Positions 17,105-64,000 of a stretch of 64,000 bases of DNA are shown piece after piece; the first letter of the stretch is position 1; every line of letters begins with the position of its first letter. The translations under genes were made by a program, and so were the position numbers. The notes under the pieces were generated by a model. It saw nothing but the letters and a program-made list of their open reading frames with translations. It had not been told where the DNA came from and did not search any database. Source of the DNA: Alphaproteobacteria bacterium (GTDB lineage: Bacteria; Pseudomonadota; Alphaproteobacteria; Rs-D84); contig WRCC01000002.1 of NCBI GenBank assembly GCA_009784235.1, positions 89,687 through 153,686 of the forward strand. Direction: 5' to 3'.

Positions 17105-17824
17105 TTAGATTGCCTTTACCACCCGACAAAATACAATTCCATAAACTGCTTTCGCGCCGGATTTTTTCAGCGTGCGACGCAATTCTGAAAAAGTCGCGCC
17201 GGTTGTCATAACATCATCAACCAATAAAATCGTTTTGCCGCGGATGTTGCCCGGTCGCGAAACTGTAAATACACCGCGAATGTTGTCGACGCGCGCACGA
17301 TAATTTTTATGTCCCATATCGGGTCGATGTTTTCGGCGGACAGATGCAGTATCAATCGGCGCATGCAAATGCCGCGCAATTGGTCGGGCCAGCAATGCTG
17401 CTTGGTTATATCCGCGTTTAAATAATCGGCGCCAAGACAATGGCACTGGCATAATTACGTCAATTTCTGTATCCAATTCGCGAAGTGATGCAATCATCGC
17501 ACGCGACATCAAATCACGATATTTAAGTGCAGACGCGTGTTTAAACGGCAGCATAACATTTTTCGATGCATCATCATAAATGCATGCCGCCCGCATCCAA
17601 TCCAATTCATTCTTGTCTGCGGCGCATATCGGGCACATCGGCCGCGACCCCAAATCCAAATTTGCTGGAAACGGATATCCGCAGATACAGCATTTCGGGT
17701 CAGAAATCCAATCAAAATTCGCCCAACACGATGCACACAGCATGCCATTTGTCGATACTGATGCGCTGCACACTGGACATGCGGGCGGAAATATAAAATC
17801 TAAGATTTTGGAAAATACTACCAA
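17105..17824 (-). CDS. comF: ComF-family phosphoribosyltransferase-like protein
   Basis: N-terminal Cys4 zinc ribbon (CPVCSAS...CASCW...CCICGYPF). C-terminal PRTase motif ILLVDDVMTTGATF. Confidence 0.7.
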   Translation of the reverse strand: MVVFSKILDFIFPPACPVCSASVSTNGMLCASCWANFDWISDPKCCICGYPFPANLDLGSRPMCPICAADKNELDWMRAACIYDDASKNVMLPFKHASALKYRDLMSRAMIASLRELDTEIDVIMPVPLSWRRLFKRGYNQAALLARPIARHLHAPIDTASVRRKHRPDMGHKNYRARVDNIRGVFTVSRPGNIRGKTILLVDDVMTTGATFSELRRTLKKSGAKAVYGIVFCRVVKAI

Positions 17825-19260
17825 CTCATACTGCGATAAGTTTTGCTGGAAATCGTATCGCCGAATATATCGCGTTGGGCATCAACCAATGTTTGATGCA
17901 AATCGCTGGAAATCACGCGCAAGACAAACGAATCATCGGCGCGGTCGGACAGTACCGGGATTATGCGACTGTCTGAAACGCCTGTATCGCGCAAGACTTG
18001 TTCAATGATGGCCAGGCGGCGTGCAGCCAATTTTCGTCCGTCATAACTGCGCGTGGCGCGTTCGGGAATGGATACTTGGATTGCACGTTTTGGATTTGCA
18101 ACAACAATCCCGGCATATTCGGAAAGCAGGTTGAAATTATCACGCGACAATGCCGAATCGTTTCCGCGGAATCCAATTTTTATTTCCAGTGGTCGTATGC
18201 CACCCGCTTCGGACAAATCGCGACGTGAATCAAATCCAGCCATTTGGATACTTAAATCGCTGGCCACATCAAATGGGTCATCGATGCGATACGTTGATAA
18301 ATGTTTGTTTTCAGAAATATAAGTTTTCTGGAATGCGCGTTTCAGCTGCATCGGCGACATTTGTGTCAACGGAACGTCTTCGCTGTGCGCATTGCGCGCG
18401 ACGCGCGTATCGGCGGCGCGAACAGCAACTGGTTCGTCGAAATAGTCGTCCGCGGGCACAACAACGCGGCGTACAAATACATCATCGTTGTTTGTTGCGC
18501 GTGCTTGGGGTTGCTGCGTTGCAACGCGTTGCGTGGGAACAAACCGATTTTCAATTGTGGATGCTTGGCGAACTGCGACACGTGGCGTTGGTTCTTCGAA
18601 TTCAATCACGCGCGCAGGCATCGGTTGTGCAACGCGTTCTGGGACAGGCGCAGGTGCGGGCGCAGCAGCGCGCAGCGGCACAGATGCAATTCCAGCGCCA
18701 CGGCTACCCGCGAATAATTCAGCATCATTGTTGCGACGTGCATTTTGCTGCATCCGGACGATTTGTGTATCCAGCGATTCTTCGGGCAATATAAAGTCAT
18801 CGCGCAACATTGCGAATTCATGTGATTCTGGCATGCGAAGCGGCGTGGGTGCGGCAACATTTGATGCGCGTGCGATTGTTGGTATCGCCGGTTCACTGGA
18901 CCGGGCCCAAATATTTCCATTTGGTCGGTTGGGCATCAAGATATCGCCGATCGCGGCCGGACGTGCGGCAACCTTTGGTGCCGAAGCAGCACGTTGTTCA
19001 GAAACAGGGGTTGGTTTCGCAATGGCAATCGGTTGCGCGGGTGCGGTTGCAACAGGTGCTTCGCCAAACAGCGCACGTGCGGAAACGGCATTTCCACTGT
19101 TCACAACTGGCAGACGGGCGTTCGCAAAAGCGCCGCCGAAACACGCGGAAATCAGCGCAAATATCGATATAGCGCGGGATGTATTACGCAAATTGACCCT
19201 TCCTTTGCCATAATGATAGAACAAATGGCAGAAGGCGGGCAAGGGAAAAGTGATGGTCAA
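17818..19260 (-). CDS. Pro/Ala-rich envelope protein with degenerate OmpA-like C-terminal domain
   Basis: Signal-like segment AISIFALISACFGGAFANA. Long low-complexity P/A/V/R-rich middle. C-terminal LEIKIGFRGNDSALSRDNFNLLSEYAGIV...RLAIIEQVL resembles a peptidoglycan-binding OmpA/MotB domain. Markedly GC-rich relative to the surroundings. Confidence 0.35.
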   Translation of the reverse strand: MTITFPLPAFCHLFYHYGKGRVNLRNTSRAISIFALISACFGGAFANARLPVVNSGNAVSARALFGEAPVATAPAQPIAIAKPTPVSEQRAASAPKVAARPAAIGDILMPNRPNGNIWARSSEPAIPTIARASNVAAPTPLRMPESHEFAMLRDDFILPEESLDTQIVRMQQNARRNNDAELFAGSRGAGIASVPLRAAAPAPAPVPERVAQPMPARVIEFEEPTPRVAVRQASTIENRFVPTQRVATQQPQARATNNDDVFVRRVVVPADDYFDEPVAVRAADTRVARNAHSEDVPLTQMSPMQLKRAFQKTYISENKHLSTYRIDDPFDVASDLSIQMAGFDSRRDLSEAGGIRPLEIKIGFRGNDSALSRDNFNLLSEYAGIVVANPKRAIQVSIPERATRSYDGRKLAARRLAIIEQVLRDTGVSDSRIIPVLSDRADDSFVLRVISSDLHQTLVDAQRDIFGDTISSKTYRSMSW

Positions 19261-22090: not shown

Positions 22091-22112
22091 AAAACGCCCC
22101 GAAGGGCGTTTT
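22091..22112. terminator. Terminator downstream of rpmA
   Basis: AAAACGCCCCGAAGGGCGTTTT. Confidence 0.7.
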
Positions 22113-22117
22113 ATTTC

Positions 22118-22372
22118 TTATTCTGCGGTGACGTGGACCGTTTTACGATTACCCATGCTGCGCTTGAATGCGACCATGCCATCGATTTTAGAGAAAATCG
22201 TGTGGTCTTTACCAATGCCGCAATTTGCACCCGGATGGATTTTTGTTCCGCGTTGACGGACAATGATATTCCCAGCGATGACCCGTTGGCCGCCGCCTTT
22301 TTTAACGCCAAGACGGCGTCCGGCCGAATCGCGTCCGTTGGTTGTTGAACCGCCACCCTTCTTTGTTGCCAT
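22118..22372 (-). CDS. rpmA: 50S ribosomal protein L27
   Basis: [24 protein letters not shown]...[16 protein letters not shown]. Confidence 0.92.
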
Positions 22373-22375
22373 GAC

Positions 22376-22675
22376 TTACCCCTTTATTTCCGTAATTTTA
22401 ACGACCGTCAATTGCTGGCGGTGACCTTTGGTCCGTCTGTAATTATGACGGCGTTTTTTCTTGAATACAATGATTTTGTCGGCGCGTGTCTGTTCGACGA
22501 TTTCGGCCAATACTTTGGCGCCCGTAACCGTCGGATTGCCGATTTTATCGCCAACCATCAAGACATGGTCGAATTCAACCTTGCCTTCACCTTTGATTTT
22601 TTCCAGTTTCAAAATATCGCCAGCCTTGGCCCGATATTGTTTTCCACCGGATTGAAATATTGCATAATCTGCCAT
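22376..22675 (-). CDS. rplU: 50S ribosomal protein L21
   Basis: MADYAIFQSGGKQYRAKAGDILKLEKI... Confidence 0.92.
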   Translation of the reverse strand: MADYAIFQSGGKQYRAKAGDILKLEKIKGEGKVEFDHVLMVGDKIGNPTVTGAKVLAEIVEQTRADKIIVFKKKRRHNYRRTKGHRQQLTVVKITEIKG

Positions 22676-52862: not shown

Positions 52863-52897
52863 AAACAAAGGGCGCAAATATGCGCCCTTTGTTTTTA
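52861..52897. terminator. Bidirectional terminator
   Basis: AACAAAGGGCGCAAATATGCGCCCTTTGTT flanked by A and T runs. Confidence 0.7.
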
Positions 52898-53206
52898 TTC
52901 TGTTACACATTCGATTGTTTCAGAATCATCAATAATCAAAATCCAATCTTTGCCTTTGTTCCAGGCGACGATTGCAACGCCTTCGAACGTGCCGGCATAT
53001 CGCACGCCAGATGCACTTTCCGTTTTAATTAATGTGATTCCTTGCATATCGACGGTGGCGACAATTTTATCTTTGAATATTTTTGCCGCAATATCAAAAT
53101 CGCCACATTTCATTTTTACGGTTTCCGCTGGTTGTTCAGTGCACGCAGCCAACAAGCCCATAGCAAAAAGTCCACAGACCATAGTAAATAGTAATTGTTT
53201 TCTCAT
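52895..53206 (-). CDS. MliC-family lipoprotein (lysozyme-inhibitor-like)
   Basis: Lipobox LLAACTE. Conserved SASGVRY and WNKGKDW..C motifs of the MliC family. Confidence 0.5.
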   Translation of the reverse strand: MRKQLLFTMVCGLFAMGLLAACTEQPAETVKMKCGDFDIAAKIFKDKIVATVDMQGITLIKTESASGVRYAGTFEGVAIVAWNKGKDWILIIDDSETIECVTE

Positions 53207-53279: not shown

Positions 53280-55382
53280 TTAAAATATTCCACCAACAAC
53301 CGCGTTATCAATTGGCATACCATCGGCATCAATGATTCCGGTGCGAACGGGTTCGTTCGGGCGCTGGCCGCTTTTGAATGCTTCCATAATAATTGTGCCG
53401 TCTGGGTCTTGGGATGCGGCGACGCCGCTCGCACGATTAACACGTATTAAATCAATTCCATCCGGCACGGAAAACGGCCGATTTGCTTCGCCTGCCAATG
53501 CCGCCGTCATAAAGTCACCAAATACGCGTGCGGCCATATATGAACCTGCGCCGCCGCCCATTGGTTTTGGTGTGTCGTATCCCATCCAGACACCAGCGAC
53601 CAAGTCTTTGGAAAATCCGACGAACCATACGTCTTTGACTTCATTTGTTGTGCCTGTTTTACCGGCGATTGTTTGGCCCGGGACGCGTGCTTGTCGGCCG
53701 GTTCCCATTTCCACCGCGCCTTGTAATATCGATACGATTTGATACAAGGACTGTGGGTCGGACAGCGGTTCGCCTGCTTCGCGTCGCGCTGGTGGATTCA
53801 AGGTTTCTGACCAATCAATATTCGAATTTCGAATTTCGAATTTCGAATTTCGGTTATCGATAACACGTCCATGGCGGTCCTGGACATAGTCAACCAGTTT
53901 CGGTCGATTGGTATGCCCGCCATTAACAAACGCAGCAAAGCCCAGCGTCAGGCGCGACAAAGTCGTTTCGCCAGAGCCAAGTGCCAATGATAAATTCATA
54001 TGCCGCATATCTTCATCATATACGCCAAACCGCTGCGCGGAACGAATTGCATTGCGTACACCGATGGATTCAACCAATCGCACAGTCGGCACGTTGCGTG
54101 ATGTTTCCAAAGAATATCGCAGCGGGATAAGTCCCATAAATTTCCGGTCGTAATTTTCCGGTTTCCACAGCGTGTTGTCTTCACGCCATCCGACAATCGG
54201 CGCATCCAACAGCAATGTTTGCGGCGTATATTTATTTGTTTCCAGCGCGGCCAGATATACAAACGGTTTGATGGTTGAACCAACCTGGCGATTTGCTTGC
54301 GTTGCGCGGTTAAACGAACTTTCTGCAAAAGAATATCCACCGGACATGGCCAATACGCGCCCGGTGTGTGGATTCATTACAATTATCGCGCCTTGCAACC
54401 GTTCCGTACGGCCGCGGTTATACGCATCCAGCGCGGTTTTAAGCGCATTCGCCGCTGCACGTTGATATTCCGGAACGATAGTGGTTTTTATGTATAACCC
54501 TTCGTTATATAATTTTTCACGGCCCAATGTATGCAGTAATTCGCGACGAACTTCTTCGGCGAAATATTGAAAATCGTCTGTCATCTGCGCCATAAATCCG
54601 CTGTTGATGTTTAATTCTTCGGCTTGGGCCATCAGCATTTCATCGCGCGAAATAAATCCTTCTTCCATCATGCGGCGCAGCACGTAATCGCGGCGGAATA
54701 CCGCGCGCGAACGGTCATTTGGTGCTTTTGGCAATGATGCCAGGAATGCAGCTTCGGACAGTGTCAATTCACCGACGGGCTTGTTAAAATACATCAAAGA
54801 CGCCGAACCAACGCCGTACGAACGTGCGCCCAAGAATATCTGGTTCAGATACAGTGTCATTATATGTTGTTTTGAAAAAGAGCGTTCCAGGCGCAGCGCC
54901 AGGATGGCTTCCTTTATCTTGCGTGATAATTTGCGTTCAGACGTTAAAAAGAAATTCTTTGCAACTTGCTGTGTAATCGTGGATGCACCGGTAAATCGTG
55001 CGCCCAAACCCAATGCATGCCGTGCATTATTCAATGTCGCGCGCGTAATGCCGAATATATCAATGCCTGGATGACGCCAGAAGTTTTTATCTTCGGCTGC
55101 GATAAATGCATTAATCAGCATTGGTGGCATATCTTCGAAATCGATAAATACGCGACGTTCTTCGGCATATTCAATCAATAATGAACCATCCGCCGCATAC
55201 AGGCGCGTTGCAACCGGCGGCGCGTATGTCGCCAATTGCCGGTAATCCGGCAAATCATTGCCGTATCGCATAACCAATAATGCAGTCGCGGCAATACCGA
55301 TAACAACCGCCCAAAACAGGCCCAGCATTATCCATTTGGCAAATTTGCGTAATTTTTGAAAAAAGGAAGTTGATGATTTCAC
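53280..55382 (-). CDS. mrcA: Penicillin-binding protein 1A (bifunctional transglycosylase/transpeptidase)
   Basis: GT51 motifs (RFTGASTITQQVAKNFFL; RKIKEAIL). Transpeptidase STIKPF and KTGTTN. Probable GTG start at 55382. H2 heptamer array at 53821..53855 in frame. Confidence 0.85.
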   Translation of the reverse strand: MKSSTSFFQKLRKFAKWIMLGLFWAVVIGIAATALLVMRYGNDLPDYRQLATYAPPVATRLYAADGSLLIEYAEERRVFIDFEDMPPMLINAFIAAEDKNFWRHPGIDIFGITRATLNNARHALGLGARFTGASTITQQVAKNFFLTSERKLSRKIKEAILALRLERSFSKQHIMTLYLNQIFLGARSYGVGSASLMYFNKPVGELTLSEAAFLASLPKAPNDRSRAVFRRDYVLRRMMEEGFISRDEMLMAQAEELNINSGFMAQMTDDFQYFAEEVRRELLHTLGREKLYNEGLYIKTTIVPEYQRAAANALKTALDAYNRGRTERLQGAIIVMNPHTGRVLAMSGGYSFAESSFNRATQANRQVGSTIKPFVYLAALETNKYTPQTLLLDAPIVGWREDNTLWKPENYDRKFMGLIPLRYSLETSRNVPTVRLVESIGVRNAIRSAQRFGVYDEDMRHMNLSLALGSGETTLSRLTLGFAAFVNGGHTNRPKLVDYVQDRHGRVIDNRNSKFEIRNSNIDWSETLNPPARREAGEPLSDPQSLYQIVSILQGAVEMGTGRQARVPGQTIAGKTGTTNEVKDVWFVGFSKDLVAGVWMGYDTPKPMGGGAGSYMAARVFGDFMTAALAGEANRPFSVPDGIDLIRVNRASGVAASQDPDGTIIMEAFKSGQRPNEPVRTGIIDADGMPIDNAVVGGIF
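53821..53855. repeat. Heptamer array H2 (TTCGAAT x5, reverse complement of the UDG copy) in-frame in mrcA
   Basis: ttcgaat ttcgaat ttcgaat ttcgaat ttcggtt. Encodes NRNSKFEIRNSNID. Confidence 0.85.
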
Positions 55383-55422: not shown

Positions 55423-57729
55423 TTATGACGTTGGTGTCGTGTGGCATGTTCCGTTGTCTGTACGCGCGGTATGTCCGGGCATACATCTGATACCAATCAT
55501 TGGACATCCGATGTTGCCGACTGGCGGGGTCCCGTCAACCACAGCGCCGGGCATCGGTGATGTGCATGTTGGGTCCAGATTGGCATTCGGCGGCGGCAGA
55601 ACACAACGGCCGTTCAAGAATCCATATCCAATATTGCACAGACATTTTTCATTCACAAAAACGCGATTCAATAATGCGGCGGCCAGCGGCGGTGTGGTCA
55701 CGTTTGGATTGGTTAATATTGAACCAGCCGATGGTACGGGCGTCCAATTGGCCGTATTAATATATTCCGAATTCGGGTCGGTGCACAGCATGGATTGATA
55801 GAACAAGCTGGATATGTTTTCGATACATGTTTCTTGCTGGGCCGTTGATGATGATATTACGTTGTTTGTGGTCGTGGTTGGGCAAGATGCGTTATCCGCA
55901 GAAAACACGGCATAAGCACACGTCAATGCCACATTACGGCACGCGCCGCGCATAACGTTATGTATGCTGGTGACAGACGCCGCGGATGACCATGCGTTGA
56001 CCTGGCTGACCTGTTGGCTGTAACAATGCGCGATGTCTTGCATACAAGTCGTTGCGAACCTGGAAATTGCGCGTTCTTGGCCGGCCTTTATATTAACCAT
56101 CGCGCGTTGAATATAATTAACAACGATATCGTTATGCGGATTGTATTTACCGCCAGCAGAGTATGAAAATTGGCGGCATTTATCCAATACCACGCGGCAC
56201 ATGCCGGATGTTGGTGATTCGCCCATGCCGATTTTGCTTTGCAAGAATCGCACGATTTCAAATCCATTGGTTGCCGTGGATAATGATATCCCAGTTGGGC
56301 AAGTGCCAGCCGCATTATTACCGGCAATTATTTCGCCGACCTTGCTGTTATCAAAGCACATCATTGTGCGGCGGATGTTATTTATATTTTGGCCCAATAC
56401 AATTTCGCCATTTTCGTCGATAAAGCGCTTCGATGGGTCCAGGCATTTGATATAATCATTTCCGCAAACCATATCGTCGGACATACATTGTTCCAGCGCG
56501 CCCAGGCAACCCTTGGCATCAAATTGATTCTGATTTTGCAGAACGGCCAGACGGGCTTTCTGTAACATTTGCGTCGCTGCGCGAACGTTGTTGCGCAGCG
56601 TGTCGTTCATACGTCCCAATCCTTGTTCAAACGCGATACAATCTTTATCAATTTCCATGTCATATCGTGCGGTGATTGCTTGGGCATTGACGCCTTGGGC
56701 GGTACAGGTATTCAGAACGTTACGGCAACGTGCTTTGGCCGCATTATGTAATTGTGTTCCACGCATATTGGAAAAAGAACCGCCGCCGCCAAACATTTCC
56801 AGCGAAAACATTTCTTCCAGACTGTCCGTATTTGTGAAATCCAAATCCAGATCCATCAGCGCGTTACCGGTGTTGGCTTCGTTCACAAATGTTTCCGGGC
56901 TGCGAATTAATTTTTCAATGGATTCCAGCATCTGGCGATTTTCGGTCGTATCCGTTTGGCCGGCCAGTGCCAATTCGGCTTCGGTTGCCGTCATAATCGC
57001 GCGGATTTCATCGGCGGACAATCCGACATAGCGAATGCGTTGGGCAACATCATTTAATTGGTTATTCGCATCGCGCACGGCACGTTCCGAACGTGTGTAA
57101 GTGTTAAGGCGCGCCGAACATGAACAGCGTTTCTGGTTCGCATCAATAACATTGCAGAATTGGTCCATGCAATCCATGTATTGCTGGCGGCATGCCTCGG
57201 TCAGGGCGTTCAGCGCGCCCAGTCGTTCGGTTGTTTCCGCAACAGATGCAGATGTTGGGCGTGCAGCGGCGCTGCGCGCGACGCGTTCGGTATTATTTAT
57301 ATTTGAACCGGTCATTGCACCGGCGGTGCCAGGAATGGTTGCGCGGCCGCCAACTTCGGCAACAGATGGGCGAAGCGTGACACCAGCGCGGCGCACGGCG
57401 GCGGATTCATTCGCGATACCTTTTTCATTTTCATTGAATGCCGCTCGCATCTCTTCGCGTTCCATTGCAGTTTGTTGCGCGCCAACGGTTGCGCGCGATA
57501 CGCCCGCACGTGCAGGCATGGGTTCAGATGCACCGCGTACAATTGATGAAGATGCCGCGCCGCGTTGGATAATTGCGGGCTGGACCGCGGCCGCTGTTTG
57601 TGCCGCCGCAACAGATGCAACCGCTGCGCGTCCGGGAACAACAGGCGCGGCTTCATCGGCGTGCAAAACCGGGGCTGATACAATCAACCCCAGTATTGTT
57701 GTTCCAATGATACGGTTCAGTGTTTTCAT
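55423..57729 (-). CDS. Cysteine-rich secreted repeat protein A (768 aa), paralogue of the upstream gene
   Basis: Signal peptide MKTLNRIIGTTILGLIVSAPVLHA. Ala-rich linker. Recurrent CRNVLNTC / CRVVLDKC / CRNVALTC motifs. Shared YMDCMDQFC...RCSC block with protein B. C-terminal EGF-like CLCNIGYGFLNGRC. Confidence 0.6.
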   Translation of the reverse strand: MKTLNRIIGTTILGLIVSAPVLHADEAAPVVPGRAAVASVAAAQTAAAVQPAIIQRGAASSSIVRGASEPMPARAGVSRATVGAQQTAMEREEMRAAFNENEKGIANESAAVRRAGVTLRPSVAEVGGRATIPGTAGAMTGSNINNTERVARSAAARPTSASVAETTERLGALNALTEACRQQYMDCMDQFCNVIDANQKRCSCSARLNTYTRSERAVRDANNQLNDVAQRIRYVGLSADEIRAIMTATEAELALAGQTDTTENRQMLESIEKLIRSPETFVNEANTGNALMDLDLDFTNTDSLEEMFSLEMFGGGGSFSNMRGTQLHNAAKARCRNVLNTCTAQGVNAQAITARYDMEIDKDCIAFEQGLGRMNDTLRNNVRAATQMLQKARLAVLQNQNQFDAKGCLGALEQCMSDDMVCGNDYIKCLDPSKRFIDENGEIVLGQNINNIRRTMMCFDNSKVGEIIAGNNAAGTCPTGISLSTATNGFEIVRFLQSKIGMGESPTSGMCRVVLDKCRQFSYSAGGKYNPHNDIVVNYIQRAMVNIKAGQERAISRFATTCMQDIAHCYSQQVSQVNAWSSAASVTSIHNVMRGACRNVALTCAYAVFSADNASCPTTTTNNVISSSTAQQETCIENISSLFYQSMLCTDPNSEYINTANWTPVPSAGSILTNPNVTTPPLAAALLNRVFVNEKCLCNIGYGFLNGRCVLPPPNANLDPTCTSPMPGAVVDGTPPVGNIGCPMIGIRCMPGHTARTDNGTCHTTPTS

Positions 57730-59768
57730 TACGGATTAATTACGCCCCAATCAGTGCCGAATGTGCGAATACTGTGGTCTGTGCCGATTGCTTGGCTGAT
57801 ACAGAATTCGCGCAGTTTCGCAGAATCCATATTCGCTCCGTACGACGGTGCAAAGCCTGCGATATTGCCCGCGCCCGTAACACCGGACAATATTTCTTGC
57901 AGTGTCACAACGTTGCGGCAAGTGTTCGTATTCCGTTCTTGGATGTTGTTACAGCTGGTGCTGTCTTGCACATCGATAACTTTGCGGAACTGTGCGGCTG
58001 ACGGGTTACATATCATCGGTTGATAACATGCCGGCGCGTTCATCATCTGGACGCAATATGTACGGATACGTGACGGTGTCCACGGTGTTGTCGTGTTACG
58101 CGTTGCTTCGAATTGTGTGCCGTAACATTCGTATATCTGGCTGATACATTCGCTGAAATTCGACATGGCAGAATTTGCTTCGGACAATATTGCGGCTTCG
58201 TCCGCTTGGGCGAATTCCAGACGCTTTGATTGCAGCAATTGTGTCGCAGCGATTTTCTGGTATTGGACGTTTTGTACCTGGCGGCGTAATTCTTCACCAT
58301 ATACGTCACAGTCCGCATTCGCATCCAGCGCATATTTTTGCAATATCGAACGACGTGCATCTGCAATCGGTCGGCGCAGCGCAGCATACGGGTCACCCGA
58401 AGTACCAGTATATCCATAGCATGCCGCAGATGTGCCCGCAGTACCCGTTCCGCCCGGCGTGACAAAATCAATGTCGTTATTATTCACTTGGATAATTGTA
58501 TTATAATTAAATGGACATTGGTTTTGGCCGGCGGGGCATCTTGTGCCTGCGCCGCCTGGGTTACCGCATGTTTCATAAATTCCGTTGAAACACGCATCCA
58601 GAACGCGGTTACAGACATTGTTATGCGCATATTGGAACAAGCTGTAACCCCAAGTATTTGCAAGAACATCGGTTGTAACTTGGCTGCCGAATATATTTCC
58701 GGTTCCGCCGCTGATTTGATTCAGTATGTCGGTTACGCTGGCCATGCTGCCCAACAAGGCATTGTCATTATTCAGCGTAATTGTATCAATGTTTTGAATC
58801 TGATTGGCGTATTGGGCCAATGCGGTCTGGATGCTGGATTCAGAACCGGAAAGTCCGCGCCACCAATTTGCACCAAGGCCGAAATTGGCTTCGGAACAAT
58901 ACTGTGGCGGTACGGTCAAGCTGCATTGCGTGGTGCCGCCGAAATACATGTGGTTTTCGCACCATGCGGTCATCTCGGCCGCGTTTCCGCGACGTTGGAC
59001 ATCATTCCAAGATGCACAGTTCATAACTTTTTCCGCATCGGTTAATGTGAACGCCGCGGTAATCTGGCGGCCGCCCGATGCGATAAACAGCGTTAATTCG
59101 CCAGAAACGCGCAACAAATCTTCGCGTGCAGATTGCAGTTGTGCTTCGACCTCGTTGAATGCGCGAACACGGCCGGCACATGCACAGCGGCGTTGACCTG
59201 GGTTACGTGCAGTACAAATTTCATCCATACATGCATAATATGAATTCAAACAATTTGCATAAGCATCTGCGGAAATAAGGCCAGTTGTTGGGTCGATAAC
59301 ATTCGTGACCGTGCCGGTATAAAGGCGATTGAACAAGTTGCCCGTGGCCGATGATTGACCGCGAATTGGCGTGCCGGACAGACTGATACGGCTTTGCATA
59401 TTTGGGGTTGTCGCAGTGCGTGCAACAACAGTACGTGCTTGATTGCCGCCGCGCGGTTGAACGGCGCGATTATTGTCAGCGCCGGCACGTGTTGTGACTG
59501 CACGACTGGGCGATTGGCCGGTTTGCTGCGTTGTGACTGGTACGGCGGCGCCTGCGCGTTGACCGGTTGCCTGTTGAACAGGAGCGGTCGGACCGGTGCG
59601 TCCGGTACGTGCGGCTTGCTGCGCTGGGCCGCCGCGCGGACTGGCAGTGGTGAAAACAGGTGCCGTTTGCGGAATTGGTTGGCCGTAAATCATACCGATT
59701 TCAGCCGTCGCAGCAAATGCGAACAATGAAAAACAGCCAGCGACCAGCAAATATTTTGTCATTCTCAT
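57729..59768 (-). CDS. Cysteine-rich secreted repeat protein B (679 aa)
   Basis: Signal peptide MRMTKYLLVAGCFSLFAFAATA. Gln/Thr/Arg-rich low-complexity linker. YYACMDEICTARNPGQRRCAC block. CNRVLDAC and CRNVVTL motifs. TAATG coupling to gene A. Confidence 0.6.
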   Translation of the reverse strand: MRMTKYLLVAGCFSLFAFAATAEIGMIYGQPIPQTAPVFTTASPRGGPAQQAARTGRTGPTAPVQQATGQRAGAAVPVTTQQTGQSPSRAVTTRAGADNNRAVQPRGGNQARTVVARTATTPNMQSRISLSGTPIRGQSSATGNLFNRLYTGTVTNVIDPTTGLISADAYANCLNSYYACMDEICTARNPGQRRCACAGRVRAFNEVEAQLQSAREDLLRVSGELTLFIASGGRQITAAFTLTDAEKVMNCASWNDVQRRGNAAEMTAWCENHMYFGGTTQCSLTVPPQYCSEANFGLGANWWRGLSGSESSIQTALAQYANQIQNIDTITLNNDNALLGSMASVTDILNQISGGTGNIFGSQVTTDVLANTWGYSLFQYAHNNVCNRVLDACFNGIYETCGNPGGAGTRCPAGQNQCPFNYNTIIQVNNNDIDFVTPGGTGTAGTSAACYGYTGTSGDPYAALRRPIADARRSILQKYALDANADCDVYGEELRRQVQNVQYQKIAATQLLQSKRLEFAQADEAAILSEANSAMSNFSECISQIYECYGTQFEATRNTTTPWTPSRIRTYCVQMMNAPACYQPMICNPSAAQFRKVIDVQDSTSCNNIQERNTNTCRNVVTLQEILSGVTGAGNIAGFAPSYGANMDSAKLREFCISQAIGTDHSIRTFGTDWGVINP

Positions 59769-59857: not shown

Positions 59858-60842
59858 GGATTTCTTTCAGTTCCAGCATATCGTCGGGCAGCTTTGATTT
59901 AAATTTCATTTTTTCACCGGTAATCGGGTGCGATAATTCCAGTAATTCTGCATGCAGCATCTGCATATTATGCGTTTTTATGAATTCCAATAATTCTGGG
60001 TTTTTGACACTGCCGAACCTGGTGCTGCCGCGGCCGTATGTCGGGTCGCACAATACCGGAAATCCGTGCGCGGACAAATGCACGCGAATCTGATGCGTAC
60101 GCCCTGTGCCCAGCGTGCACCGGAATTCAGAAACACCGTTTCGCGACCAAGCATTTAAAACAACGACCGATGTGTGTGCTTCCTTGCCGCCGACCTTGAC
60201 CATTGTCATTTTTTGGCGGTTGTGTGTGCTGCGCCCGATATTGCCTGAAATATCCGCGGATTCCCAATTCGGAACGCCCCAAACAAATGCAACATATTTC
60301 CGCACCAAATCATGCGCGGCGAATGTTTTTACCAATTCGCGATACGCCGCGTCGGTTTTTGCCAAGATGACAACGCCGGATGTACCCTTGTCCAACCTGT
60401 GCACAACGCCTGGACGTGTATCGCCGCCAATATCGGCCAATGTGGTATGCGTTAAAACAGCGTGAACCAAAGTATCTGTTTCATTGCCTGCACCTGGATA
60501 CATTGCAATCCCGCGTGGTTTGTTCACGACGATGATGTCATTGTCTTCGAATAAAATTTCCAGGTCGGTATTCGGTAGACAGTAGTCAGTAGACAGTAGA
60601 GATTTATCTTGTTTTACAGGAATCGCAACCGAAAATTCATCACCGGGTTTTATTTTTTCCGACAATTTTACTGTTAACTGTCTACTGTCTACTGTCGGCT
60701 TTTTTATTTCAAATTTCTGAATTTCTGTGCGGGAAAAATCCGGCATTTGTACGGCAAGAAATTTATCCAGTCGCATTCCGGTATCATCTTCGGTAACGAT
60801 AAAATTTCTTATTTCGGCGGCCATTGTGTTATCTTGTTCCAA
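59847..60842 (-). CDS. rluD: 23S rRNA pseudouridine synthase RluD (RluA family with S4 domain)
   Basis: S4 domain (MRLDKFLA). Catalytic HRLDKGTSGVVILAKT. Two inverted GACAGTA heptamer arrays inside the coding sequence (60575..60602, 60668..60695). Confidence 0.8.
   Translation of the reverse strand: MEQDNTMAAEIRNFIVTEDDTGMRLDKFLAVQMPDFSRTEIQKFEIKKPTVDSRQLTVKLSEKIKPGDEFSVAIPVKQDKSLLSTDYCLPNTDLEILFEDNDIIVVNKPRGIAMYPGAGNETDTLVHAVLTHTTLADIGGDTRPGVVHRLDKGTSGVVILAKTDAAYRELVKTFAAHDLVRKYVAFVWGVPNWESADISGNIGRSTHNRQKMTMVKVGGKEAHTSVVVLNAWSRNGVSEFRCTLGTGRTHQIRVHLSAHGFPVLCDPTYGRGSTRFGSVKNPELLEFIKTHNMQMLHAELLELSHPITGEKMKFKSKLPDDMLELKEILDL
60575..60695. repeat. Inverted pair of H3 heptamer arrays inside rluD
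   Basis: gtagaca gtagtca gtagaca gtagaga (60575-60602) and ttactgt taactgt ctactgt ctactgt (60668-60695), ~65 bp apart. Encode KSLLSTDYCLP and PTVDSRQLTVK. Confidence 0.8.
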
Positions 60843-61309
60843 TCATCACCATGTTCGCAATTTTCCAGACGAACAATCAATCTGCCGGACATTTGTTCAA
60901 CATCGCAAGTCATTATTCCGCGTGTACGTGCTTGGGTTGCACGACTGTCTGCTTCGCGCCATGCCAATACCAATTGTGTCGGTGGCAGCAGACATGTGAC
61001 ACTCATCCGTGCATCGCGGTTTTCGAAAAATCTTTCCGTTGGGCCGACCCAAATACGGACATTTTCGGTCTGGCCATAACATGGAAATCCGTCCAAGTAA
61101 TATATTTCTGTACCAATGCTGCTGGTGCGTCGTTCCGACCCAAACCAAATATCATATGGCGCCAGACGTAATCCGGTGACGGCTTCCCAATCTGAACTGG
61201 TCGAAAATATAGACGCAATTGGACCGCAAACGGGCGGCGGCGGTGTCGCGGCATTTGCCACAGCAAAAAGTAAAAAGTAAAAGGTAAAAAGTAAATAAGT
61301 TTTCTTCAT
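60809..61309 (-). CDS. Hypothetical secreted protein
   Basis: Signal peptide MKKTYLLFTFYFLLFAVANA. Its hydrophobic region is encoded by an AAAAAGT heptamer array (61265..61299). Confidence 0.4.
   Translation of the reverse strand: MKKTYLLFTFYFLLFAVANAATPPPPVCGPIASIFSTSSDWEAVTGLRLAPYDIWFGSERRTSSIGTEIYYLDGFPCYGQTENVRIWVGPTERFFENRDARMSVTCLLPPTQLVLAWREADSRATQARTRGIMTCDVEQMSGRLIVRLENCEHGDDWNKITQWPPK
61265..61299. repeat. Heptamer array H5 (AAAAAGT x5) encoding a signal-peptide hydrophobic region
   Basis: aaaaagt aaaaagt aaaaggt aaaaagt aaataag. Confidence 0.8.
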
Positions 61310-61328
61310 CTTAAATCCTTCACAAACA

Positions 61329-61829
61329 CTAATCTGCGAAAACCACATTTGCGCGGCGGACGCTTTGCGATTTTATTTGGACTTCTTGTTTGAAATTTGC
61401 ATGTTCACCTGCGTCCAGCAACGGTGCCGGCGGCATAATTTTAATTGTTTCAATCACATCGCCGGAATCGTTTTTTAATTCCAATGCCATATCCGGAATG
61501 CCATAAATCTTGTCCGTGATATTTCGCACCGTACCCGTAACCATAAATCCATGGGCGTTGTCCTTGGATTCGGTTGGTATTATTTGAACAGATTCGATAA
61601 TCAATGGGTCCGGTGATTTTCGTGGCCTTGGCGATTTAATTGTTATAACGATTGCGAATACCAGTGTGGCCAACAATGCACATATACTGGCAAAAATCAG
61701 CAAGAAATTATTTTTGGCGCGCACGGGCGCCCATTCGTTTCCACATGCCGCGCATGCAACGCGCGTGGGCACGCCCGTAACCGAATATTCTGTTTTACAA
61801 AAAGGACAGGATGTCTTCATAGGTCGCAC
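61329..61829 (-). CDS. MJ0042-type zinc-ribbon / DUF3426 membrane protein
   Basis: CPFCKTEY...CAACGNEW zinc ribbon. TM helix. C-terminal DUF3426-like domain ending VVFAD. Confidence 0.55.
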   Translation of the reverse strand: MRPMKTSCPFCKTEYSVTGVPTRVACAACGNEWAPVRAKNNFLLIFASICALLATLVFAIVITIKSPRPRKSPDPLIIESVQIIPTESKDNAHGFMVTGTVRNITDKIYGIPDMALELKNDSGDVIETIKIMPPAPLLDAGEHANFKQEVQIKSQSVRRANVVFAD

Positions 61830-61840
61830 TCTACTATAAA

Positions 61841-63142
61841 TTAATCTAAATTCAATAAATGATATTTTGCGGTGACGCGGGTTTTAATTTCAGCAATTGC
61901 CCGTGCATAATCTGCGACCGTGGCATTGGTGTTGTTTGCAATTTGTGACATTGTTCGTTCTGTATCTGTACGCAGTGTGCCAGATTCACGGCGCACGGCG
62001 GCACGCATCATAATACCCAGGTTCGGAATGGACATATCGGATAATTCTGCGGTTTGCGCCGCCGCGTCCCAATAAAATGAATTGTTATTCGGGTCTGAAA
62101 TTTTACCGGTAACGGACAGATATGGCGTGACAGAGCCGGTAAAACCAACGAACGCAAGGCCCGCCGAAATACGTCCGCCGGTCATATCAAGATTACGGTT
62201 TATGTTCAGTGTTGCAGGCGCGCCGTCCGACCGAACAGATGCGCCATGCACATATAAATCACCGGTCCACAGTTCATTCGCGGTGACATTGTTGAACCTG
62301 GACATACCGCTGACCGTCATTCTGTTTGTTTCCAGAACACGCGAATCCGAAGATATCGCACCGTTCACATTCGCATCGGTTATCGTGAACCGACCATCCA
62401 ATGTTGGACTGTTTTCAATTACCGCGCGACTGGCCGACAAAGAATGTGTGTTCAGGAATTCGGAAAACTTTGCAACTTCGCTGAATATACTGCGCGCGCC
62501 GGTGATGGCATGCCCGCCCAGCGATATGTCGGATAACATCGTTGCATCGGACGCGGAATCAGATGGCAGGCGCCGCAAAAATTCCGTACCAAATCCAGAC
62601 GTCCGCGTAACATCCAATATTGCGTTATCGGCAAACCGCGCGTTCCAGATTGTGGCAGATGTTTCCCATGTCCCATATATACTGTGCAATTTTCCGCCGG
62701 CCGCATATCCGCCACCGGTTATTTCTGCAATTTCGCGTGTTCGCATTGGCGTCATTTCGCCGGTTTCCATAATCACGATTCCTTGCATAAATGCGCGTCC
62801 GGCGCGGTCGGCGGTTTTAATAACACGTAACTGATATTGTTCCGGACGGTTTATGTCTGTTGGGGTCAGGCCGTATGGTTCCAGGTCAGCAATATTCACA
62901 CGAAACACGCGTCGCCCGATTGTTGTTCCGAATTCTTTTTTTCGCGCATCAATATATTTTTCAAGCGCAGTGCGAACCATCGCCATATCACGCCCAGCGC
63001 GAATATTTTCAGCGCGCGCAACGCGTGCAGATTCTTGGCGCGACAAAAATGGCAACATTGCGGCGGCCAATGCCATGGCCAGCAATAATTCAATCATCAT
63101 GCGGCCAGATTGCTGTCGAAAATTTAATTTATTCTTCTTCAT
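61841..63142 (-). CDS. Large prepilin-type (class III signal) protein, putative minor pilin or pilus-associated adhesin
   Basis: MKKNKLNFRQQSG|RMMIELLLAMALAAAML: short basic leader, Gly at -1, Glu at +5, hydrophobic helix. ~400 aa Ser/Thr/Gly-rich C-terminal domain. Confidence 0.45.
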   Translation of the reverse strand: MKKNKLNFRQQSGRMMIELLLAMALAAAMLPFLSRQESARVARAENIRAGRDMAMVRTALEKYIDARKKEFGTTIGRRVFRVNIADLEPYGLTPTDINRPEQYQLRVIKTADRAGRAFMQGIVIMETGEMTPMRTREIAEITGGGYAAGGKLHSIYGTWETSATIWNARFADNAILDVTRTSGFGTEFLRRLPSDSASDATMLSDISLGGHAITGARSIFSEVAKFSEFLNTHSLSASRAVIENSPTLDGRFTITDANVNGAISSDSRVLETNRMTVSGMSRFNNVTANELWTGDLYVHGASVRSDGAPATLNINRNLDMTGGRISAGLAFVGFTGSVTPYLSVTGKISDPNNNSFYWDAAAQTAELSDMSIPNLGIMMRAAVRRESGTLRTDTERTMSQIANNTNATVADYARAIAEIKTRVTAKYHLLNLD

Positions 63143-64000
63143 GTTCACCGTTGGATTGTGTGCCTGCGCCGCGCGTTTCTTTCCATCCTTTGTTTAAAAT
63201 TTTTGCAAATTCGGCCACTGGGACATTTGAAAATTCTGGAATATTTTGGGCGGCGCCCGCACTGCGCAGGACCAATGAATTAAATCGCGGCGCCGGTGAT
63301 GTTGGAAACGACCATTGGCCCAGTCTCAGCGGCACGCCGCCGAATGTTAATTCGCTGGACACTGATACGCCGAATCCATCACCGAATCTTAAATTGGTTG
63401 CAGATAAATATGGAACAGATACAGAATAAGCCGATATTTCGGCAAAACCGGACAGCGACCCGGAATATGCCGCGCGAAAATGCAAATTGCGCCCAACATG
63501 CAATGCGTCTGTGATTGTTGCGCGGTCGGCGATTATCTGACCTTGGGCGGGCCAGCTTTGCGTGCCGCCAGTGCCGCGGAATTCATTCGCAGAAATACTG
63601 CGAAATCCGGTTATATCGCCGGATACGCGCAGATTTTGAATTGTTGCGTCTGTTGGATTCATTACGGTGCCGCTTTGAAAAATTGCATCGTCAAATGTGG
63701 CAGATTCCGAATTTACAAACCAAGCGGATACGTGTTTTGAATCCAGCATTCCGGCGCGTGCATCATCAACATTGCGCAATGAACGGCGGCCCATTAACAA
63801 ATCGCGTTCCATCGTGTTTAAAATTGTATCTTCGCCGGTGCGAATGCGGTGCAAGAAAACCGTCGAATCATCCGGTGATAAGTGCACAGATACGCGAAAT
63901 ACCAAATCGTTTTCGTGGAATGTCTCGGATTCAATTGACCAGCCGCCGCCAGCGGAAAACGCCAGGCCATTGCTGTCCGCGATTGCGGCATCAACGCCCA
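63129..64000 (-). CDS. Ser/Thr/Gly-rich protein, C-terminal part; frame open to the window end
   Basis: Hand translation shows no stop upstream to position 64000. Composition resembles the C-terminal domain of the prepilin-type protein. 20 bp overlap with the downstream gene. Confidence 0.4.
   Translation of the reverse strand, partial: GVDAAIADSNGLAFSAGGGWSIESETFHENDLVFRVSVHLSPDDSTVFLHRIRTGEDTILNTMERDLLMGRRSLRNVDDARAGMLDSKHVSAWFVNSESATFDDAIFQSGTVMNPTDATIQNLRVSGDITGFRSISANEFRGTGGTQSWPAQGQIIADRATITDALHVGRNLHFRAAYSGSLSGFAEISAYSVSVPYLSATNLRFGDGFGVSVSSELTFGGVPLRLGQWSFPTSPAPRFNSLVLRSAGAAQNIPEFSNVPVAEFAKILNKGWKETRGAGTQSNGEHEEE

Follow-up and report, generated by a model that had tools for sequence, protein, structure and literature searches.

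Two cysteine-rich exported protein families of gut Alphaproteobacteria (order Rs-D84), possibly forming disulfide-stapled helical rods

The chlamydial envelope proteins OmcB and OmcA resemble the gene pair analysed here, which I call B and A, in several respects: they are Sec-exported and cysteine-rich, their genes are adjacent, their bacterium is host-dependent with a reduced genome, and disulfides are central to their function. However, no sequence or domain match connects the two pairs, the chlamydial proteins form intermolecular cross-links whereas the cysteine parity of A and B points to closed intramolecular pairing, and OmcB is not known to be helical whereas A and B are predicted to be helical bundles. 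The twin-CX9C (CHCH) and twin-CX3C proteins of the mitochondrial intermembrane space, in which cysteines at a fixed helical spacing staple antiparallel helices, offer the best analogy for the way the CX6C motifs of A and B probably work. Nevertheless, the spacing in A and B is six rather than nine or three, their deduced staples are many, they are ten times larger, and they belong to another compartment and kingdom and share no homology with these proteins. The Hcp proteins of Helicobacter (Sel1-like repeats) are likewise secreted, helical and host-associated, with disulfides bridging helix pairs, but A and B match no Sel1 or TPR family in Pfam, lack a regular repeat of 34-36 residues, are much larger and have disordered linkers at the N-terminus. 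Finally, comparison with the elongated helical-bundle surface proteins of parasites (trypanosome VSG, ISG65 and HpHbR) gave scores that are not significant, and those proteins are eukaryotic, GPI-anchored and fast-evolving whereas the cores of A and B are strongly conserved.

Both genes lie on the minus strand of the window, by which I mean the whole 64,000-nucleotide stretch analysed. Gene B (57729..59768) is an open reading frame for an exported cysteine-rich protein of 679 aa, identical (100% match) to the NCBI MAG protein FWE52_02655, and gene A (55423..57729) encodes one of 768 aa, identical to FWE52_02650. The two meet in a TAATG stop/start overlap (57727..57731, minus strand), read as ...CCG TAATG AAA..., in which one base is common to the ATG of A and the TAA of B, so the coordinates and junction given in an earlier, sequence-only reading of this DNA are correct. 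Upstream of B on the same strand stand a Shine-Dalgarno sequence, AGGAAAGGG (59784-59776), and a TATAAT-like hexamer (59801-59796), each recognised by resemblance to consensus alone; the hexamer does not appear in the promoter scan. B and A are genuine genes, putatively co-expressed, for two distantly related extracytoplasmic proteins.

Each protein has more than 1000 homologues (approximately 46-56% identity for A and 47-54% for B), and alignments of both families contain many invariant residues. A relatives are present in 338 GTDB species genomes, the 80 inspected all being gut MAGs of the Enterousia/Rs-D84 type, and every named relative is a gut alphaproteobacterium with a reduced genome ('Ca. 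Enterousia', Rs-D84). Members of this order, across which both proteins appear to be present, have genomes below 1 Mb, no respiration and incomplete glycolysis, and a partner-dependent lifestyle has been proposed for them (PMC12306168). Pfam and NCBIfam searches with A and B came back empty, and no characterised family or solved fold matched either protein in the sequence, domain and structure comparisons made. The suggestions that the pair belongs to no recognised bacterial family and is lineage-specific therefore stand: A and B are two uncharacterised families, encountered in this analysis in no group but order Rs-D84 ("Candidatus Enterousia"), and look confined to that lineage. The same reading's "undescribed system" does not, as these are structural-looking proteins with no signature of an enzymatic or multi-part system; what the pair does represent is a genuine undescribed family, for which I infer a function below.

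The N-termini of A and B resemble Sec signal peptides, with a positive n-region followed by a hydrophobic stretch of 12-17 residues, and neither protein has a second hydrophobic 19-mer. In B the peptide comprises aa 1-22 (59703..59768, minus strand; cleavage between ATA and EI; hydrophobic maximum at aa 7-18) and in A aa 1-24 (57658..57729, minus strand; between LHA and DE; maximum at aa 11-22). Cleavage sites are kept among homologues (AFA before D in the A family, VFA before DP in the B family), which bears out the cleavable signal peptides first proposed. The linkers that follow (A 25-159, B 23-155), described earlier as low-complexity and Ala/Gln/Thr-rich, are indeed rich in Ala, Arg, Thr, Gln and Gly, with a pI of 11-12, no cysteine and predicted disorder. 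That of B (59304..59702, minus strand) has a pI of 12.0, a net charge of +11 and pLDDT below 50; its residues 23-126 share 26% identity with relatives, in which the length ranges from 98 to 154 residues. The variable part of the A linker (aa 25-106; 57412..57657, minus strand; pLDDT mostly below 50) shares 21% identity with relatives, in which it ranges from 78 to 159 residues. It leads into a linear motif (aa 107-143; 57301..57411, minus strand) that lies in the disordered region but is 70% identical to relatives, with the consensus N..RRAG..LRP..AEVGGRA.I.GT...TGSN and invariant R113, R114, G116, R120, P121, A124, V126, G127, G128, R129 and S142. Because AF2 confidence is low here, this motif probably takes up a fold only when bound to a partner.

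Next comes the one part that A and B clearly have in common, a module of about 80 residues with the pattern C-x6-C-x4-C-x9-C-x-C. The B copy (aa 166-256; 59001..59273, minus strand) reads C173-x6-C180-x4-C185-x9-C195-x-C197 plus helices and the A copy (aa 175-256; 56962..57207, minus strand) C180-x6-C187-x4-C192-x9-C202-x-C204, the five cysteines being invariant in both families. The shared block noticed at the outset occurs exactly as quoted and reflects real homology over this span: BLASTP of A against B gives E 2e-9 for it, and hhalign aligns A175-256 with B168-250 (probability 98.5%, E 2.5e-15) and reports nothing beyond the module, where BLASTP finds a weak match (E 1e-4). Thus the term "paralogues" holds for the N-terminal module and the overall layout but not for the remainder. 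A module profile searched against 1.84 billion proteins matched 490 cluster representatives, and every one of the best 145 is A-type, B-type or a short fragment. No additional paralogue was found within the window or among the first 82 loci, which amount to 1.4 Mb of sequence from relatives.

Taken whole, both proteins are cysteine-rich, as stated from the start, with 30 cysteines in A (3.9%) and 25 in B (3.7%) against a mean of approximately 1.3% in other proteins of the window. The B body (aa 261-679; 57732..58988, minus strand; AF2 pLDDT 80-91 over aa 470-660) has long predicted helices, including 462-557, and sixteen more cysteines that 90% or more of members conserve. The A core (aa 323-652; 55774..56763, minus strand; pLDDT 80-93 over most of aa 400-650) is 56% identical to relatives and holds seven CX6C motifs; overall confidence of the AF2 models is moderate (pLDDT 62-66, pTM 0.40-0.45). 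CX6C motifs fall in predicted helices of both proteins and occur more often than expected (9 against 1.4 in A, p<5e-5; 4 against 1.0 in B, p=0.016), so the cysteine spacing is not random. The many copies claimed for the motif C-[RN]-[RNV]-V-...-C come down to three in A (335, 511 and 597, the CR[NV]V..xC copies among its seven core CX6C motifs) and, in B, one complete copy and half of another (386, 617).

The number of cysteines, counted after the signal cleavage site, is even in 198/215 A members (p 1e-40) and 128/128 B members (p 3e-39), although counts span 20 to 64. Non-invariant cysteine columns co-vary (A 481/491, phi 0.80; A 616/635, phi 0.73; B 411/418, phi 0.77), and in the A protein of the window the 481/491 pair is missing while a pair of its own, 458/477, is present. 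Even parity, together with the gain and loss of cysteines two at a time, is strong evidence of complete disulfide pairing and hence of export.

The C-terminal tail of A (aa 653-768; 55426..55773, minus strand) is Pro/Thr-rich, carries small cysteine modules in its translation and is only 18% identical to relatives. Here the EGF-like ending reported before is present as CLCNIGYGFLNGRC (55603-55644, minus strand), with a pattern, C-x-C-x2-G-Y-x6-C, that resembles EGF-like modules and fits the loose EGF pattern, C-x-C-x2-G-[FYW]-x4-8-C; but the tail falls below Pfam and PDB-sequence thresholds and does not match Pfam EGF. Tails of relatives extend 29 to 1037 residues past the conserved motif, and some of them do match Pfam families (Ephrin_rec_like, also GCC2_GCC3, in 3/42; EGF_TEN, NCD3G and TNFR-like), others match Flg_new/InlB B-repeat, and NCBI labels one A-family member an InlB B-repeat protein. 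Domains of these kinds are typically found in extracellular proteins; here they are decorations in the A family and not its conserved body. Identity to relatives is 49-67% in the core and 18-26% in linkers and tails.

The best explanation, which I hold tentatively, is that the pair makes a stalk-and-tip structure of the envelope or surface, built of disulfide-stapled helical rods. A and B would be exported by Sec and lose their signal peptides, leaving a basic, disordered tether of variable length (100-150 residues) whose strongly conserved short end motif probably binds an envelope partner that is itself conserved. The body would be a long alpha-helical bundle in which cysteines seven residues apart staple neighbouring helices and, with essentially all of them paired, make the bundle a stiff rod of about 7-14 nm. 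At its variable C-terminal end, disulfide-knotted small modules that resemble EGF, ephrin-receptor or TNFR domains, joined in certain species by long arrays of InlB B-repeats, would be presented to the cell or surface to which these metabolically dependent bacteria attach. B and A would probably form a hetero-complex held through the shared module, as gene linkage and that module suggest, though the gene overlap is absent in most relatives. Both proteins probably belong to the cell envelope or surface, and the variable tails suggest surface display; a surface or host-interaction role is plausible from the small disulfide modules and the InlB-B-repeat tails of relatives. The core, however, shows strong purifying selection of a kind that typical adhesins do not, which counts against an adhesin-type role. 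Also against this explanation, a motif scan of the window and the first 82 loci showed no Dsb-type oxidase, and the order has no respiratory chain for DsbB reoxidation (PMC12306168). Moreover, no device for crossing the outer membrane or anchoring there was recognised in A or B, whether autotransporter barrel, TPS, T9SS CTD, RTX, conserved lipobox or sortase signal, and the export and disulfide data would suit a periplasmic location just as well.

Such a location underlies another, rather unlikely reading, in which the rods are a periplasmic scaffold linked to peptidoglycan synthesis: basic linkers would tether them to peptidoglycan or membrane, and the rods would serve as spacers or else work with or regulate the class A PBP encoded next door, in a way that loosely recalls LpoA/LpoB or Lpp of other bacteria. 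The pair is flanked, as first described, by rluD and a class A PBP gene, mrcA, and the window has the order B-A-mrcA-mliC on one strand. In relatives mrcA is found no more than 8 kb from A in 14/81 loci, in several orientations, and adjoins B-rplU-rpmA in some metagenome loci, so its proximity is recurrent but not constant, and reduced genomes retain synteny without a functional link. The commonest neighbours are instead rplU-rpmA, an RNase T-like gene and uvrD. A Sec signal with no outer-membrane export signal, a strongly conserved core suited to housekeeping, and rods of 7-14 nm from AF2 helix lengths, comparable to periplasmic dimensions, would all agree with a scaffold. LpoA and LpoB, activators of class A PBPs, also have long disordered linkers; A and B, however, are non-lipoproteins with no similarity to LpoA, LpoB or Lpp, and highly variable modular tails (InlB-B-repeat, EGF, TNFR-like) are unusual for periplasmic scaffolds.

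The chlamydial comparison invites a further reading, that intermolecular disulfides join A and B to each other or to other envelope proteins in a redox-switchable lattice like the OmcA/OmcB/MOMP complex, hardening a transmissive stage of a host-dependent bacterium. In its favour are adjacent genes for exported cysteine-rich proteins, both of which appear to be present across the order, in a bacterium of reduced genome for which an obligate symbiotic or parasitic life has been proposed. I consider it improbable: the even cysteine counts of nearly all members and the helix-periodic CX6C speak for intramolecular staples over free cross-linking thiols, Pfam shows no similarity to chlamydial OMP families, the organism retains peptidoglycan synthesis genes, and the gut lumen is a reducing environment. 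The chance is slimmer still that A and B are secreted alpha-helical toxins or effectors whose bundles rearrange into a target membrane, the variable tails being receptor-binding domains. Least credible of all is that the cysteines bind metals or Fe-S clusters in redox or sensing. Their abundance and regular spacing, the anaerobic habitat and the absence of Dsb genes from that motif scan would suit this. Yet parity and paired gain and loss fit disulfides and not sites of 3-4 ligands, CxxC and CxxCH motifs and Pfam metal-binding domains are absent, no His is conserved alongside Cys, and the signal is of Sec rather than Tat type.

B precedes A on the same strand in 44/82 GTDB loci and about 39/46 metagenome loci, directly or across rplU-rpmA; the usual order is B-rplU-rpmA-A, and a B-A gap of 0-90 nt occurs in about 12 GTDB loci, rplU-rpmA intervening in most others. 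Translational coupling, proposed for the window pair, may be read from its overlap but is no family trait, the overlap being specific to this sublineage. The raised GC noted for the genes is genuine, though small in extent (0.514 and 0.515 against 0.466 +/- 0.027 in other genes), comes mainly from the linkers (0.61) and leaves GC3 ordinary (z<=1). Elsewhere the window encodes LptD, LptF/G, LolCE/D-like, TolC-like and PagL-like genes, in keeping with a diderm envelope. The mrcA gene (53280..55382, minus strand; Pfam Transgly plus Transpeptidase) likely starts at the GTG at 55382, homologue alignments to its ORF beginning mostly at residues 39-48, and therefore does not overlap A; upstream of it the promoter scan found a promoter-like TTGATT-16-TATAAT (55417-55390, minus strand).

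Gene B (57729..59768, minus strand, 679 aa) is followed directly downstream by gene A (55423..57729, minus strand, 768 aa), and at their TAATG junction, as read from the sequence, one base is common to the B stop codon and the A start codon. B is preceded by a TATAAT-like hexamer and a strong ribosome-binding site (AGGAAAGGG, seven bases 5' of the ATG); A has no ribosome-binding site of its own comparable to that of B, which fits coupled translation of the two genes in this genome. The overlap behind the translational coupling proposed in the sequence-only reading is thus present in the window, but B and A are similarly close (0-90 nt apart) in no more than about a dozen GTDB loci. The pair is flanked upstream by an RluD-type pseudouridine synthase gene and downstream by a class A PBP gene (mrcA, 53280-55382, minus strand), after which comes a gene for an MliC-family lipoprotein (lysozyme inhibitor; mliC, 52895-53206, minus strand). 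The longest mrcA ORF, from a TTG at 55496, overlaps A. Because homologue alignments mostly begin at residues 39-48 of this ORF, the annotated frame is probably over-extended and mrcA probably starts at the GTG at 55382, which leaves a 40-nt spacer with a promoter-like site between it and A. The mrcA-mliC pair recurs in many related loci. The remaining window is diderm housekeeping: parAB, several tRNA synthetases, LptD, LptF/G, Lol-like, TolC/HlyD-like and PagL-like proteins, gyrA and others.

A and B are two real, previously undescribed protein families. Taking membership in Pfam-A or NCBIfam as a score at or above the model's curated cut-off, A matched no Pfam family, B gave only sub-threshold hits to RAB3GAP2_C (16.6 bits, cut-off 25) and DIT1_PvcA (11.7, cut-off 26.4), and NCBIfam returned SMC alone (11.4 bits against a cut-off of 729). 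PHROGs and PADLOC had no match for either protein. The A and B family profiles matched nothing among all PDB sequences at E<=1, nor did the A tail by itself match any PDB sequence, and Foldseek with the A and B models found no match at E<=0.001. The initial impression that the pair belongs to no recognised family is thus borne out by HMM, BLASTP and structure searches. A and B also differ from the Sel1-like/Hcp Cys-rich repeat proteins in having no Sel1 or TPR match at E<=1 (Pfam). The literature found on Enterousia and Rs-D84 deals with metabolism only and holds no account of these proteins. Their broad kind, exported disulfide-rich envelope or surface proteins, is already known, and I file A and B as a variant of it; they would nonetheless count as new Pfam-type families, probably with a disulfide-rich helical architecture that is also new.

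The N-terminus of each protein has the features of a typical Sec signal peptide, and neither has a second hydrophobic segment; the n-, h- and c-regions and A-x-A-type cleavage sites are kept across the A and B families. There follows a Cys-free tether of 130-135 residues, basic (pI 11-12), predicted to be disordered, rich in Ala, Arg, Thr, Gln and Gly, and variable in sequence and length among relatives (21-26% identity). In A the tether ends (aa 107-143) in a nearly invariant linear motif, RRAG..LRP..AEVGGRA.I.GT...TGSN, with 70% identity to relatives, and at the equivalent position B carries another conserved stretch of different sequence. The bodies are modelled mostly as long alpha-helices (core pLDDT 80-93), among them A 349-399, A 534-577 and B 462-557. 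Lysine is scarce in both proteins (0-5% in every segment, 0-1% in the linkers) and arginine plentiful (10% in the linkers and the N-terminal module).

The internal RRAG of A was considered as a Tat signal and ruled out, since it lies at residue 113 with no hydrophobic stretch after it. As the mark of a lipoprotein I took a lipobox, [LVI][ASTVI][GAS]C, that closes the signal peptide and is conserved in the family. A has no Cys before residue 180, and the lipobox-like LVAG-C12 of B (residues 8-12, window 59733-59747) falls within the hydrophobic core and is not shared by the family: relatives have LLAGA and FFVC at this position, with V at -1, and LVAG-C occurs in the window genome only. The resemblance is probably coincidental. 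Autotransporter, TPS, T9SS CTD, RTX/T1SS and LPXTG signals were absent from A and B by Pfam or NCBIfam.

A contains 30 Cys, 25 of them conserved in at least 90% of 42 relatives, and B contains 25, of which 21 are conserved. The commonest distance between successive Cys in both is 7, and CX6C is in excess over shuffled sequences in A (9 observed, 1.4 expected, p<5e-5) and in B (4 observed, 1.0 expected, p=0.016). These motifs are located in predicted helices, where residues i and i+7 point to the same side. With a crude signal-peptide cut, the mature Cys count is even in 198 of 215 full-length A members (binomial p 1e-40), in which it ranges from 20 to 48 or more. Counted downstream of a conserved A|DP cleavage-type site, it is even in 128 of 128 B members (p 3e-39; range 22-64); the signal region holds 0-3 Cys, and because the count after the site is always even the lipoprotein reading of B is rejected on this ground also. 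Variable Cys columns are gained or lost jointly (A 481/491, phi 0.80; A 616/635, phi 0.73; B 411/418, phi 0.77), and in window A the 481/491 pair is missing while a private one exists at 458/477. Spacing, parity and joint gain and loss together provide strong statistical evidence that essentially every mature Cys of A and B would be in a disulfide, and such full pairing would itself argue that the proteins are exported and lose their signal peptides. By analogy with twin-CX9C proteins, the CX6C helices may be stapled pairwise. A and B differ from the CHCH/twin-CX9C proteins, which have two CX9C motifs in a helix-turn-helix, in their dominant spacing of 7 and in having no Pfam CHCH match. The two families offer an unusually clean sequence signature of disulfide helix stapling, and a puzzle: how an anaerobe without a respiratory chain forms about 27 disulfides in A and B. 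No Dsb-like CXXC protein turned up when the window and the first 82 loci were scanned for the motif, a test too weak to establish absence.

The tandem Cys-rich pair described in the sequence-only reading is confirmed overall, apart from full-length paralogy and the "many" copies of a C-[RN]-[RNV]-V motif. By BLASTP, A65-255 matches B45-249 (E 2e-9) and a second segment aligns more weakly (E 1e-4); among the window ORFs the A and B family profiles match each other (E 1e-11 and 3.5e-8). Profile-profile comparison, however, yields one confident region of about 80 residues (A175-256 against B168-250, probability 98.5%, E 2.5e-15), so that the paralogy holds for this N-terminal module and not for the whole length. 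The region comprises a C-x6-C-x4-C-x9-C-x-C module and the next helix, and includes the shared block noticed at the outset. The C-[RN]-[RNV]-V motif exists, but in three copies in A and one complete and one half copy in B.

I define a shared-module superfamily by this module, placed about 150-300 residues into the protein and with a conserved helix after it; window A and window B both have this arrangement. Searched against 1.84 billion cluster representatives, the module profile matched 490 proteins at E<=1e-3. Among the 150 of these that were listed, the usual start of the module is 100-320 residues into the protein; a few short or truncated entries have it earlier. The best 145 of the 490 comprise 111 A-type proteins, 25 B-type proteins and 9 short fragments, with no third module-bearing family seen among them. 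Divergent "A-like" proteins of up to 2338 aa were considered as such a family and ruled out, as they have A-type cores with extended tails. A check for further paralogues, raised with the original observation, found none in the 64 kb window and none in the 1.4 Mb of related sequence that the first 82 loci comprise.

NCBI entries 100% identical to A (FWE52_02650) and B (FWE52_02655) come from a termite-gut-style MAG, "Alphaproteobacteria bacterium". Searches with either protein gave more than 1000 homologues, roughly 45-56% identical to it; those that bear a name in these searches are all "hypothetical" and belong to MAGs of Alphaproteobacteria or "Rickettsiales". When one genome per GTDB species was scanned, 338 had A relatives; the 80 best matches among them are gut MAGs (humans, mice, ruminants, birds, termites), many named Candidatus Enterousia, and include complete chromosomes of 0.72 and 0.96 Mb. 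Rs-D84 bacteria and "Ca. Enterousia" are common in human, livestock, rodent, bird and termite guts, have genomes under 1 Mb, no respiration and incomplete glycolysis, and are thought to live off other cells (PMC12306168). A and B appear to be central to this poorly understood gut lineage. The higher GC reported for the pair is present, but it is compositional, arising from the linkers, with normal GC3; since orthologues also recur throughout the inspected loci, a foreign origin is ruled out. Several MAG records titled "uncultured Muribaculaceae" or "Bacteroides fragilis" (L004, L009, L022, L025, L033, L043 and L076) carry A genes, usually with B. Two of them, L022 and L076, have rplU and rpmA between B and A, and the L27 protein shares 86-95% identity with its counterpart in the Rs-D84-type locus L036. 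These records look taxonomically mislabelled.

The C-terminal ends are variable. Core regions are 49-67% identical to relatives against 18% for the tail of A, a Pro/Thr-rich, poorly conserved segment with small Cys modules, including CLCNIGYGFLNGRC, and the last residues ...NGTCHTTPTS. An EGF-like domain has about 40 residues and six Cys (C1-C3, C2-C4, C5-C6) and is recognised by EGF models; window A contains only the C-terminal half of the pattern, CLCNIGYGFLNGRC, and no Pfam EGF model matches the protein. Across the A family the tail extends 29-1037 residues past the last conserved motif, and tails of relatives match Ephrin_rec_like (3 of 42), EGF_TEN (1 of 42), NCD3G and a TNFR-like model. 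A 1714-aa member has Listeria-Bacteroides (Flg_new) repeats, and a 1454-aa member bears the NCBI name [quoted passage not shown]. In the related locus L083 (10001-16020) a divergent 1474-aa A-type protein ends in an array of about 700 residues of Cys-containing repeats (YTVTINC..., YTVQLSC..., YTLQCG...), and behind it comes a separate secreted Cys-rich protein of 464 aa in which similar motifs occur. The genomic context there is different, with rpoBC, plsX and a PLD-like gene. B-family members, too, can bear small C-terminal Cys modules.

Of the 82 loci anchored on A, 44 have B upstream of A on the same strand; so do about 39 of the 46 metagenome loci, each at least 10 kb long, that were anchored on B. 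B-rplU-rpmA-A is the gene order found most often (27 of 46 and 27 of 81 loci): in most Enterousia-type genomes rplU (L21) and rpmA (L27) lie between the two genes on the same strand (L036 6794-7408). Because only about 90 nt separate rpmA from A in these genomes, the arrangement suggests that A may be transcribed there with the ribosomal-protein operon. In the window rplU-rpmA is at 22109-22675 (minus strand), 33 kb from B-A. An RNA element in the gap of about 0.9 kb between B and A in relatives was ruled out; the gap is rplU and rpmA, and Rfam was empty. The mrcA-mliC, gyrA-merR and rluD genes stand beside the pair in varying permutations, and elsewhere its neighbours are an RNase T-like gene and uvrD. 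A functional operon with mrcA or rluD is not supported, since neighbours differ between relatives. Thus, context speaks for linkage of B with A and perhaps for expression alongside ribosomal-protein genes, and lends no support to a dedicated multi-gene system or a firm PBP1A tie.

It is well supported that the genes are real and that their products, carrying the features of Sec-exported, disulfide-bonded extracytoplasmic proteins, would be fully disulfide-bonded and mainly helical, in two lineage-restricted families with one common module. What might such proteins do? Of the lineage-specific surface or host-interaction family first suggested, the lineage restriction, the novelty and the export stand, and the surface role is the part I hold with caution. 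I tentatively favour, at somewhat less than even confidence, an envelope or surface structure of stalk and tip, probably formed by A and B together, with which a partner-dependent bacterium would display variable binding modules. Surface exposure is argued for mainly by the pattern that the body is conserved while the distal domains, modular and of extracellular type, change fast. Such tails fit poorly with the main rival, in which A and B would form a periplasmic scaffold or a PBP-associated spacer. Strong core conservation and the lack of any recognisable outer-membrane export or anchoring signal in A and B speak for it, and I consider it rather unlikely but serious; were it true, the proteins would still be a lineage-specific answer to envelope architecture in a minimal diderm. 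A cross-linked lattice like that of chlamydiae is very unlikely. A and B differ from the chlamydial Cys-rich OMPs OmcB and OmcA in lacking any OMP or DUF11-type repeat match (Pfam) and in their helical predicted structure. That these helical proteins are a toxin is highly improbable, and that their apparently paired cysteines bind metal is scarcely credible.

A bolder form of the stalk-and-tip interpretation is distinctly unlikely: A and B would be the building blocks of a novel surface organelle, a hetero-oligomeric "twin-CX6C" helical stalk of a new fold class, anchored by the basic tether and docking motif, exported by an unrecognised outer-membrane route and attaching to partner cells as the lineage's defining adaptation to dependence. 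Through this stalk the metabolically crippled bacteria would hold on to, and rely on, a partner cell, whether bacterium, protist or host epithelium.

Large, strongly conserved and exported, and together occupying about 4.3 kb of a very small genome, the two proteins are prime candidates for the lineage's envelope or attachment machinery. The B-A pair shows no sign of a new enzymatic or multi-component mechanism.

Upstream of rluD (window 60809-63905, minus strand) are four lineage-specific genes of 179, 166, 435 and 258 aa. The 435-aa protein has a prepilin-like start, ...QQSG|RMMIELLLAMALAAA, with Glu at +5, and the 166-aa protein a weak zinc-ribbon and DUF3426/FxLYD signature; the others have no Pfam or NCBIfam match. 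Together with rluD this five-gene block adjoins A in two related loci (L053 and L082); it may encode an export apparatus resembling a pilus or pseudopilus. A 480-aa protein without a family match is encoded between a ComF-like gene and uvrD (window 17818-19260, minus strand). In Enterousia loci uvrD is flanked by four successive no-Pfam proteins of 433, 480, 401 and 463 aa (L001 15540-20887), present in 45-46 of 81 loci, a further conserved, uncharacterised block of the lineage.
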